In this document: positions 39,077 through 42,255 of the stretch, in pieces
Layout of the letters: each line of letters opens with the position of its first letter
Numbering within the stretch: the stretch's first letter is position 1
Source of the DNA: an uncultured Thiotrichaceae bacterium
GTDB lineage: Bacteria > Pseudomonadota > Gammaproteobacteria > SZUA-229
Direction of reading: 5' to 3'
Length of the DNA: 58,720 bases
Assembly: GCA_964466455.1 (NCBI GenBank)
Contig: CAYXNL010000004.1
Coordinates: 1-58,720 of the forward strand
The notes under the pieces: generated by a model
Databases searched by the model: none
What the model saw: the letters and a program-made list of their open reading frames with translations, nothing else
What the model was told of the DNA's origin: nothing
Translations under genes and position numbers: made by a program

Positions 39077-39553
39077 ATGGCTCAAACTGGCATAAATAAA
39101 GTAATCCTGATCGGTAATTTAGGCAAGGATCCGGAAGTGAAATACATGCCAAGCGGTGATGCTGTGGCAAATATCACCATGGCTACCTCGGATACATGGA
39201 ATGATAAAAATAGCGGTGAGAAAAAGGAAAAAACAGAATGGCATCGTGTTGTTTTCTTTGGCAAGCTAGCAGAAATTGTTGGTCAATACTGCAAGAAGGG
39301 CTCCAAGATATATGTCGAAGGACAGTTACAAACCCGTAAATGGCAGGGGCAGGATGGGCAGGATCGTTACACCACTGAGGTTGTTGTCAGAGGATTCAAT
39401 GGCACCATGCAAATGCTTGACAGTCGTGGCGATGGCGGTGGTTATGCACCAGCTCAGGCACCTCAGGCGCAGTCTGCTGCACCGGCAAAACCTCAGCAAA
39501 CGACCGCTCCTGCAATGGTGGATGACAATTTTGATGATGATATTCCGTTTTGA
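39077..39553 (+). CDS. ssb: Single-stranded DNA-binding protein
   Basis: [24 protein letters not shown]-terminal DDDIPF. Confidence 0.99.
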
Positions 39554-39581
39554 AAGGTTCCCGGAAATCTTTTTCACTACC

Positions 39582-39601
39582 ATCTGCCAGGGCAGATTTT
39601 C
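39582..39601 (+). terminator. Possible ssb terminator
   Basis: ATCTGC-CAGG-GCAGAT followed by a short T-run. Confidence 0.45.
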
Positions 39602-39705
39602 AGTCTTCAGGGATTTGATTCCTCGCGGCTTGTGGTGGGTTGCTTGTTATTGCAACCGAGCTTGCAAAGTTGCAGGGTTATCATTATATTTACCTGTCAT
39701 TACTC

Positions 39706-39735
39706 AGGCCAACGTACAAAAGGCCAACGTACAAA
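39706..39735. repeat. Perfect 15-bp tandem duplication
   Basis: AGGCCAACGTACAAA x2. Confidence 0.95.
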
Positions 39736-39761
39736 GCCGAACTTTTCAATAGGAGGAGATA

Positions 39762-39962
39762 ATGGATACAGAAAAAATAATGGAGGGTATTTCTGCAGAA
39801 ATGCTGGTTGCATTAAGTGCAATGGAAAAAGCAGAAACGCAGGAAGAAAAACGGATATACAGTGAAATAATAAAAAATTTGAGTAGTTCACTAGGTGAGC
39901 TTTATCATTTGATCAGCGATATGGCGGGGCTGTATGATGAAGATGAATCCATTCCCTTTTAA
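39762..39962 (+). CDS. Small acidic helical protein with SSB-like C-terminus (DEDESIPF)
   Basis: Strong RBS AGGAGGAG just before the ATG; 66 aa; amphipathic helical pattern. Confidence 0.8.
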   Translation: MDTEKIMEGISAEMLVALSAMEKAETQEEKRIYSEIIKNLSSSLGELYHLISDMAGLYDEDESIPF

Positions 39963-39996: not shown

Positions 39997-42255
39997 ATGA
40001 CGCAACAGAATGAACTTGAATTCGAAGGCATAGAACATCTACCAATCTCTGAATTTACTGAAAAAGCCTATCTCGATTACTCTATGTATGTCATTCTGGA
40101 TCGGGCTCTGCCATTCATTGGTGATGGTCTAAAACCAGTTCAGCGTCGTATTGTTTATGCTATGTCCGAGCTTGGGCTGAAAGCCTCGTCCAAACATAAA
40201 AAATCAGCACGTACTGTTGGTGATGTACTGGGTAAGTACCATCCGCATGGTGATAGTGCCTGTTATGAAGCCATGGTGCTGATGGCGCAGCCATTTTCCT
40301 ACCGCTACCCACTGGTTGACGGACAGGGGAACTGGGGTTCAACAGACGACCCAAAATCATTTGCGGCAATGCGTTATACCGAGTCACGGTTAACCGCTTA
40401 TGCAGAAGTATTACTAGGTGAGCTGGGTCAGGGGACGGTTGAATGGACACCTAACTTTGATGGTACGCTGGATGAACCCGAATCACTTCCCGCACGTTTA
40501 CCTAATGTTCTATTAAATGGCGGGACAGGTATAGCAGTTGGCATGGCGACCGATATTCTGCCACATAACCTGCGCGAAGTGGCCAGCGCCTGTGTGCGTT
40601 TACTGGAAGCACCGAAAAGCACACTGGAAGAATTGTGTGAGCATATTCAGGGACCAGATTTTCCTACCGAGGCGGAGATTATTACCCCGCGTGAAGAGAT
40701 TATCGAAACCTATCGCAGTGGACGCGGCAGTATCCGTCAGCGCGGCTGTTATCATACAGAAGACGGGTTTATTATTATTACAGCGCTACCCTACCAGGTT
40801 TCTGGTAATAAAATACTGGAACAGATAGCGCAACAGATGACGGCAAAAAAGCTACCAATGGTAGAAGATTTACGGGATGAATCTGACCATGAAAATCCAA
40901 CCCGGCTAGTCATTGTGCCACGCTCAAACCGGGTTAATAGCGATGAGTTGATGCAGCATCTGTTTGCGACCACTGATCTTGAACGCAGTTACCGTGTAAA
41001 TATGAATATGATCGGTATCGACGGGCGCCCTCAGGTAAAAGATTTACGCCTGCTGCTGGGGGAATGGCTTAATTATCGTACCGTTACCGTTCGTCGTCGT
41101 CTGCAATGGCGCCTGGAGAAAGTTAATAAACGTTTGCATGTGCTGGATGCGTTGTTAATTGCGTATCTGAATATTGATGAAGTGATTGCGATTATTCGCG
41201 AAAACGATAAACCCAAACCGGTATTAATAGTACATTTCTCGATTAGTGATCTACAGGCGGAAGCCATTCTGGAATTAAAACTGCGTAATCTGGCGAAACT
41301 GGAGGAAATGAAAATACGTAAGGAACAGAATGCGCTGGCACTGGAACGAACCTGGCTTGAAAAAATTCTGGCTTCAGCGCAGCGTTTAAAGACACTGATT
41401 CGCAAAGAGATTATTGCTGATGCCGATGCCTATGGCGACGACAGACGATCCCCCATTGTTGAACGCACCGTCGCTCATGCGCTGGCTGAATCATCACTCA
41501 TTTCCTCTGAAGCGATTACGATTATATTATCGAACAAAGGTTGGGTGCGGGCGGCAAAGGGACATGAAGTTGATCCATCAAAATTAAATTATAAAGCGGG
41601 GGACAGTTACTCTGCTTCTGTACAGGGCAAGACGAATCAACGCGTTGTTTTTTTTGATTCGAGTGGGCGTGCTTATACCCTGCCGGCACATAAGTTGCCA
41701 TCTGCGCGTGGACAGGGCGACCCCCTGACCGGTTATTTTACCTCTCCTGCCGGCGCATATTTTATCGCTGTTATGACTGGTCATGAAGATGACCTGTATC
41801 TACTGTCCAGTGATTCTGGTTATGGTTTTGTCGGTCGGCTGGGTGATATGCAGGCAAATGCCAGAAAAGGTAAAGTGGTATTAAATGTGGGCAGGGGAGC
41901 AAAAGCATTATCCCCTGTCAAAGTTTGTGATATGAAAACCGACCGGATTGTTGCGGTCGGTAGTACCGGATATATGCTGGTAACCCCGCTTGCACAGTTA
42001 CCACAAATGGCAAAGGGTAAAGGGAATAAAATTATTAATATACCTTCCAGGCTACTGAAAAGTGGTGAGGAGCGGGTGGTAGCGATAACACTGGTAGCGG
42101 AAAAAGCCAGTCTGGTCGTGCATTGTGGTAAGAAATATAAAACGATGAAATCATCTGAACTGGGTAATTACGCCGGTGAACGCGGACGACGGGGGGTGAA
42201 GCTGTCCCAGGGCTATCGTCAGGTAGATCGAATGCTTGTACTCAAAAAAAACTGA
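39997..42255 (+). CDS. parC: DNA topoisomerase IV subunit A
   Basis: [19 protein letters not shown], catalytic AAMRYTE. Confidence 0.98.

Follow-up and report, generated by a model that had tools for sequence, protein, structure and literature searches.

In the window (the whole 58,720-nt stretch of DNA that was analysed), a 66-aa ORF is located on the plus strand at positions 39762–39962, stop included, situated between ssb and parC. Direct reading gives an ATG at 39762, a TAA at 39960–39962 and the product MDTEKIMEGISAEMLVALSAMEKAETQEEKRIYSEIIKNLSSSLGELYHLISDMAGLYDEDESIPF, and a Shine-Dalgarno sequence, GGAGG (39752–39756, plus strand), lies 5 nt before the start codon. The upstream neighbour ssb (39077–39553, plus strand; PF00436, E 5e-40; TIGR00621) encodes a protein with the C-terminal end NFDDDIPF and is separated from the small ORF by 208 bp. 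On the other side, 34 bp lie between the small-ORF stop and parC (39997–42255, plus strand; TIGR01062, 1068 bits), which encodes topoisomerase IV subunit A and is a mere neighbour, outside the unit. The initial annotation had described a 66-aa ORF with a strong RBS between ssb and parC, ending in YDEDESIPF next to an SSB that ends in FDDDIPF; the ORF, its RBS, its position and both endings were all confirmed. The small protein has a pI of 4.18 and a net charge of -10, and its tail tip, Y58–F66 (YDEDESIPF; 39933–39959, plus strand), consists of an aromatic-plus-acidic patch followed by S-I-P-F-COOH.

The spacer between ssb and the small ORF holds several elements of its own. A consensus scan, and that only, gives a sigma-70-like promoter candidate, TTGCAA-17-TATATT, at 39662–39690 (plus strand). 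Further downstream in the 5' leader lies a tandem 15-nt repeat, two copies of GGCCAACGTACAAA[A/G] (39707–39736, plus strand), which is unique in the genome and could be a regulator site or a slippage-prone spacer. One of the two copies is absent from a ~95% identical strain (run X10), which has a 15-nt gap at 39706; differences read from the same alignment comprise three synonymous changes and three amino-acid replacements in the small ORF, with the tail unchanged. Closer to ssb, a spacer stretch at 39595–39648 has copies (41–54 nt, 78–83% identical) at C92:38-78 and C1:17900-17953 of the same genome, and it may be a small dispersed repeat.

An AlphaFold2 model of the small ORF (m0987af95ee33) was built from a 37-sequence alignment. 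The model is a helical hairpin with a mean pLDDT of 86, in which the helix blocks reach 87–97 and the last block, with the tail tip, is a low-confidence end at ~51. Helix 1 comprises residues 3–23 (39768–39830, plus strand) and is preceded by a D-(T/P)-E-K N-cap; helix 2 comprises residues 27–59 (39840–39938, plus strand), and N-cap boxes, D-P-E-K and T-P-E-E, start both helices. The helical hairpin proposed in the initial annotation is therefore supported by the model, where core, floppy acidic linker and tip together make up an SSB-like layout. A Foldseek search returned generic hairpins only, with best E-values of 0.56 in the PDB (encapsulated-ferritin-like) and 0.17 among the viral models of BFVD. 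An encapsulated ferritin-like hairpin, which would call for ferroxidase Glu/His residues and an encapsulin gene nearby, was rejected on that E-value of 0.56, the lack of a conserved His in the family alignment and the lack of a conserved neighbour. Membership of the SSB family was rejected as well: the model is all-helical, without an OB fold, and the SSB OB-fold profiles PF00436 and PF22657 are absent from the small ORF and from all 37 members tested.

The small protein belongs to a family that was retrieved from a broad range of bacteria. A one-genome-per-species scan yielded 39 loci, an exhaustive HMMER search gave 32 clusters at 50% identity, and a word-indexed search returned the small protein itself and one 68%-identical relative. 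The gammaproteobacterial hosts, sulfur oxidisers, are MAGs of Acidiferrobacteraceae, Thiogranum, Ectothiorhodospiraceae, a lucinid symbiont and Methylococcaceae; the other hosts are Desulfobacterota, SAR324, a Zetaproteobacteria MAG, an anammox MAG and one Bacteroidota MAG. The source organism itself is from hydrothermal-vent metagenomes. Within its genus the gene is present in two of three genomes, and these are the only carriers among 61 relatives. In a vent metagenome (run X14), a family homologue of another organism aligns at 39759–39793 with an assembly depth of ~1280, so the family can belong to abundant community members.

Conservation is concentrated in the helices. In the helix 1 region, M1, D2 and M7 are invariant and E4, K5 and E13 are conserved in at least 90% of members; in helix 2, S34 and N39 are invariant and K38, L40, S43, V46 and F47 reach at least 90%. 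The most conserved family block, YSExVKNL(C/S)xSLGVF, lies on helix 2. No significant match was found for the small ORF or the family among Pfam and NCBIfam profiles, none for the family in a PDB-sequence profile search, and no meaningful one among PHROGs and PADLOC profiles. The family was also not found in phage, plasmid and viral-contig collections (for phage, by tblastn with the family consensus), and a phage, plasmid or defence origin was rejected on the combined outcome for these collections, PHROGs, PADLOC and BFVD. The family is undescribed and chromosomal, belongs to free-living sulfur-cycle bacteria and is without a mobile-element signature.

Two observations concern individual branches of the family. 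Two members, in an anammox MAG (L037:6001-6159) and in a Desulfobacterota isolate (L041:6001-6156), end after ~51 residues with the whole tail missing, and they are probably decaying copies. One gammaproteobacterial subclade (L019, L024, L025, L027, L029 and L032) shares a block, about TTCGGTGAATATTTC, at approximately -60 to -25 before the ATG; this block may be a promoter or operator for some regulator, and it is absent from the window.

To analyze the genomic context, flanking genes were compared across the family loci. The linkage to ssb and parC, suggested by the arrangement in the window, did not hold: none of the 39 loci has ssb, parC or an MFS gene within ~6 kb. The same-genus copy (G002:C10, L002/L014, ~1–1300 of L002) is located between prfC and the gene for a 426-aa Fic-motif protein (HPFWDGNGRTGR). 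No conserved partner gene was found among 135 flanking proteins (147 Pfam families, the top family occurring in five proteins). The commonest flanking families are PAS, Cache and GGDEF, with 3–5 proteins each, and toxin-antitoxin components, with 2–3 each; an association with DNA-metabolism genes was not seen at the family loci. Since the gene travels alone, without a conserved neighbour, any partner must be a host component present in many phyla, like the SSB-interacting enzymes.

Several modes of regulation and spread were considered for these loci and rejected. For SOS regulation, 4 LexA-box-like sites were found upstream versus 2.6 expected. For an integron cassette, complementary R''/R' cores (RYYYAAC ... 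GTTRRRY) were sought beside the ORF; 0 complementary attC core pairs were present in 298 kb of family loci versus 2.9 expected, and none in the window. For a MITE or transposon unit, inter-locus DNA similarity ends at the RBS and at the stop codon, and terminal inverted repeats were not seen at the ends of the 409-bp segment described below. Among family loci, flanking conservation is limited to the RBS and the first codons.

The position of the gene beside ssb can be traced in related strains. A 10-nt direct repeat occurs here in two copies on the plus strand: the left copy, ATTCCGTTTT (39542–39551), holds the I-P-F codons and the first base of the ssb stop, and the right copy, ATTCCCTTTT (39951–39960), holds the I-P-F codons and the first base of the small-ORF stop. 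Together they delimit a 409-bp segment composed of leader and ORF (39542–39950, plus strand), which is absent from a related strain. In the contig of this strain (run X16, 4515 nt, ~92% identical), 39541 is joined to 39951, so that 409 bp are skipped and 10 letters fit both sides; ssb ends on the right-hand 10-mer, the parC leader follows directly, and the small gene is absent. In runs X12 and X14, the sequence after ssb resembles the second genome of the genus, and the match with the window picks up again precisely at 39954 (CCCTTTTAAGCACCG), with non-coding sequence before it. The orphan CCCTTTTAA that precedes the parC leader in these runs is the scar of a former ...PF-stop. Within the genus the MFS–ssb pair is conserved and the genes 3' of ssb differ in every genome. 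No donor context emerged for the 409-bp segment from the closest homologue, whose flanks are unrelated.

Whether the 409-bp polymorphism arose by insertion or by deletion, its junction lies in the microhomology of the two IPF-coding ends, and the ssb 3' end is a rearrangement point in this lineage. Because related strains differ after ssb, and the X16 strain is without the gene, the small gene is dispensable and its place beside ssb reflects a rearrangement of local extent, with neither an operon-like nor a functional linkage behind it.

Next, the tails of the family members were compared. After helix 2, every member carries an acidic and aromatic tail of 7–20 residues (mean 12.5, of which 5.3 are acidic and 2.0 aromatic), with 1–3 aromatics in each; the family means are a pI of 4.4 and a net charge of -7. 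Among 69 members, 34 end in [ILVM]PF-COOH, five in xPF and two in PF plus 2–3 residues, 12 end in an acidic run followed by a hydrophobic residue, and the remaining 16 end otherwise, mostly acidic. PF near the end is missing from 28 of the 69 (~40%), mostly in Desulfobacterota, with endings such as DFEE, DEDDYE, DFDDEII and EPPL. The tree of the family is weakly resolved; by subgroup, PF is found in 34 of 38 members around the window protein and in 7 of 31 members of the other, mostly Desulfobacterota, subgroup. This second subgroup has lost the PF ending, and a few of its members end in EDIPF or EDLPF. The initial annotation had named loss of the terminal (I/L)PF in homologues as the finding that would count against it, and such a loss was half borne out: the ending is kept in the subgroup of the window protein (34/38) and is missing from 28 of 69 members overall.

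The 27 genomic members that end in PF use ATT or ATC for the final Ile, CCA, CCG, CCC or CCT for Pro, and TTT or TTC for Phe. Since synonymous variants of all three codons occur, selection acts on the protein and not on the DNA, and about half of the family members show such selection on the terminal ΦPF. The same synonymous variation, together with the fact that homologues in 39 genomes share only the RBS and the ORF at the DNA level, indicates that the small ORF is a real gene. A tip held at the very C-terminus, a linker free in length and synonymous codon turnover are together what one sees in a tethered C-terminal docking motif, and this pattern is the strongest support for the idea of an SSB-like tail put forward in the initial annotation.

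To assess how unusual such an ending is, ORF ends were surveyed in the organism's own genome (2.27 Mb, 44.7% GC, 97% complete), using 6213 ATG-ORFs of at least 50 aa. IPF closes only 3 of these 6213 across the whole genome, and the combination of at least three acidic residues in the preceding six with [ILVM]PF is confined to SSB and the small ORF. A position matrix for the SSB tip was then built from 23 SSB tails and used to score the last eight residues of ORF ends. The last eight residues of the small ORF rank 6 among 6196 ORF ends (top 0.1%), and 0.02% of internal 8-mers reach the same score; this score is nevertheless 5.3, far lower than the 25.7 of SSB itself. By these counts, the SSB-like ending of the small ORF is more than a chance match.

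Recognition of the SSB C-terminal tip (SSB-Ct) has been described in terms of two hot spots, of which the distal one is the (D)IPF segment and the proximal one the aromatic/acidic DFDD segment (PMC10143822). Three features of the SSB tip can be compared with the tail of the small protein. The window protein has ΦPF at the C-terminus with a free carboxylate (IPF, then stop), and it has a proximal aromatic-plus-acidic segment on a disordered linker (YDED in the window, PYDDD in the consensus). The acidic residues of SSB at positions -3 and -4 have no such counterpart: the family tip motif is (E/G)-(P/S)-I-P-F, not D-D-I-P-F. At position -3, the 27 PF-ending members have Pro (17), Ser (8), Leu (1) or Glu (1), never Asp in the subgroup of the window protein, whereas Asp or Glu occupies this position in all 23 distinct SSB tails tabulated. 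Position -4 in PF-ending members is mostly Glu, so that acidity is shifted one residue upstream relative to the D-D-[IV]-P-F of SSB. The proposal of an SSB-tail mimic therefore keeps its general form, a tail that is acidic, disordered according to the model and closed by IPF-COOH, but loses the match at position -3, where Pro or Ser stands in 25 of 27. The two tips are related rather than identical, and that of the small ORF may have another reader.

The tips of the host SSBs were examined alongside the family tails. An SSB gene was recovered in 21 of the 24 genomes holding a family member, and 20 of these have an SSB ending in D/E-[IV]-P-F. A non-ΦPF member is present in 16 genomes; an SSB was found in 14 of them, and all 14 keep D(I/V)PF on it. 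The family tails do not co-vary with the tips of the host SSBs, and the I/V differences do not track each other either. As PF-less members occur in genomes whose SSBs keep D(I/V)PF, a function shared by the whole family cannot depend on the ΦPF tip. In two Desulfocapsaceae genomes (G069 and G072; L058-L059, L076-L080), 3–4 ssb paralogues were observed, the extra ones being shorter and having the tips DMEVPF, DTEVPF and EKDVPF.

The acidic-IPF tip of SSB is read by exonuclease I, RecQ, PriA, RecO, RecG, the DNA polymerase III subunit chi and others. Exonuclease I (PF08411), a classical reader, is encoded in the organism's own genome (C41:9330-10133), and no match to chi (PF04364) was found in this 97%-complete genome or in the same-genus genome G002. 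The phyletic pattern was considered as a guide to a specific reader and rejected, as the distribution of PF-tailed members follows neither that of chi (PF04364) nor that of exonuclease I (PF08411). To our knowledge, all well-studied bearers of the SSB tip are SSBs, and a limited literature search, partly poorly targeted, found no natural non-SSB carrier or mimic of SSB-Ct.

Starting from the gene, the family, the predicted fold and the disordered linker of variable length, we infer a mode of binding, the identity of the partners, an oligomeric state and a physiological effect. Our best reading, which we offer tentatively, is that of a tethered SSB-tip-like docking peptide acting as a competitor or adaptor. 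The small protein is stand-alone, cytoplasmic and strongly acidic, and is built on a predicted two-helix hairpin of ~55 residues. The small hydrophobic core and the conserved polar helix face suggest that the hairpin could be a scaffold for oligomerisation, probably as a dimer packed into a four-helix bundle. From this scaffold the disordered tail would be presented, with the YDED patch (compare the DFDD of SSB) followed by (E/G)-(P/S)-I-P-F-COOH. The terminal Phe and the free carboxylate might dock in the SSB-tip-type pocket of replication, recombination or repair enzymes, and the acidic residues further upstream in the tail may contact the adjoining basic surface of the enzyme. As a decoy, the small protein would be a competitor of SSB tips on one or a few of these enzymes; alternatively, if the conserved hairpin surface holds a second partner, it could act as an adaptor that bridges both.

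The main rival to this docking peptide is a polyanionic nucleic-acid mimic, which we regard as rather unlikely. Here the acidic-aromatic tail, or the whole protein, would fill a basic cleft that binds ssDNA, DNA or RNA, for instance of the SSB OB fold, a recombinase, a nucleoid protein or RNA polymerase, and would modulate or block nucleic-acid binding; the terminal ΦPF would be a lineage-specific affinity enhancer, not the functional core. Acidic tails of this kind are known from phage T7 gp2.5 and gp4, where they are aromatic-ended, and from the delta subunit of Bacillus RNA polymerase. In every family member an acidic tail with 1–3 aromatics directly follows helix 2, and the PF-less members keep [DE]-[FY]-[DE] patches (EDFDDEII, DYDFEDD, GLDFEE), as a nucleic-acid mimic would lead one to expect. 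The SSB tip has moreover been reported to bind the OB domain of SSB itself, in cis (PMC3936761). The retention of a terminal I-P-F over linkers of 7–20 residues, with synonymous changes, is, however, more specific than a charge mimic needs, and no DNA-mimic fold or family was matched in the PDB-sequence profile search or by Foldseek in the PDB and BFVD.

A second rival, which we consider unlikely, is that the tail serves an unrelated purpose and that its resemblance to SSB is convergent or incidental. The tail could then be a degron or adaptor tag for an AAA+ protease, or it could dock on a partner unrelated to DNA metabolism, for instance a chaperone, a cell-division protein or a PDZ-like reader of Φ-x-Φ-COOH. 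Alternatively, its acidity could keep a regulatory hairpin soluble or protect it from aggregation. The systematic difference from SSB at position -3 points in this direction, as do the loci, where replication and repair genes are not associated and an SOS box is absent. The conserved polar face of helix 2 (S34, K38, N39, S43) suggests that the hairpin has a partner of its own, and signalling proteins (PAS, GGDEF, Cache) and toxin-antitoxin genes are slightly over-represented nearby. This enrichment in signalling neighbours is nonetheless small (3–5 of 135), and such families are abundant in these genomes. Moreover, SSB-tip pockets are the only bacterial readers of acidic-IPF-COOH known to us, and the limited literature search turned up no other. 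A neighbourhood artefact, i.e., an IPF-stop captured or duplicated from the ssb 3' end or a spurious frame in the ssb–parC spacer, might be read from the 10-mers at the bounds of the 409-bp segment, which are near-identical and code for the IPF of ssb and of the ORF, and from the related strain whose ssb reads straight into the right-hand copy, but it is highly improbable, with a family spread over several phyla and conserved at the protein level, and the idea that the ORF borrowed the ssb end is excluded because homologues elsewhere, in unrelated contexts and none near ssb, end in ESIPF or EPIPF.

The interpretation of the initial annotation as a whole thus stands in part: the ORF is real, the hairpin is predicted and the IPF tail is kept with PF in 34 of 38 members of the subgroup, whereas the linkage to ssb or parC (0/39 loci), the residue at -3 and the 28 of 69 members without PF speak against it. 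The simplest form of the SSB-tail hypothesis is contradicted by half of the family, judging from the endings. The tethered docking peptide that we prefer would nevertheless be of consequence, as the C-terminal tip of SSB is a central hub of bacterial genome maintenance and an antibacterial drug target. A related tip on a scaffold that does not bind DNA would, if true, be a natural regulator or competitor of the SSB hub. The Pro or Ser at -3 and the one-residue shift of acidity would then constitute a natural experiment on pocket specificity, and the family offers a natural control, with one subgroup carrying the PF tip and the other going without.

In its strongest form, which seems to us somewhat doubtful, the docking reading implies a cellular, chromosomally encoded family of free-standing SSB-tip proteins, in which an oligomeric acidic hairpin would carry several SSB-like tips at once and would tune or hijack the SSB network of sulfur-cycle bacteria, e.g., by sequestering exonuclease I, RecQ or PriA in certain conditions. 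If true, this would be the first natural non-SSB regulator in a cellular genome acting via SSB-Ct pockets. As a corollary, nucleotide identity over the IPF-stop would let such genes recombine into and out of the ssb 3' end, as the 409-bp polymorphism suggests. Should the tail be read elsewhere, what remains is an undescribed, widespread family of small proteins with a clear tethered C-terminal motif.

Among known systems, small acidic DNA-mimic or competitor proteins, such as T7 gp5.9, phi29 p56, Ugi and the C-terminal helix of DinI, resemble the family in size (50–85 residues), in their strongly negative charge, in being encoded by stand-alone genes and in occupying a nucleic-acid-binding surface, as the family might. 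They show no sequence match or significant fold match to the family, and the mimics use a folded charged surface, whereas the conserved feature of the family is a terminal linear motif. Phage T7 gp2.5 and gp4 and T4 gp32 carry acidic tails on DNA-binding or helicase domains, the T7 tails having an aromatic end. With them the family shares a polyanionic, disordered tail whose terminal aromatic would sit on basic patches of partner enzymes and compete with nucleic acid; unlike them, it is without a nucleic-acid-binding domain, and it does not occur in the phage, plasmid and viral collections searched. The nearest known thing to the family tail is the SSB-Ct motif itself (...DFDDDIPF). The family differs from it in its carrier, an acidic two-helix hairpin without an OB fold, in the Pro or Ser at -3, in the ~40% of PF-less members and in a linker of 7–20 residues, but it shares with SSB-Ct a disordered acidic C-terminal tail, an aromatic-plus-acidic patch, a terminal I-P-F-COOH and a variable linker that ends in a conserved tip.
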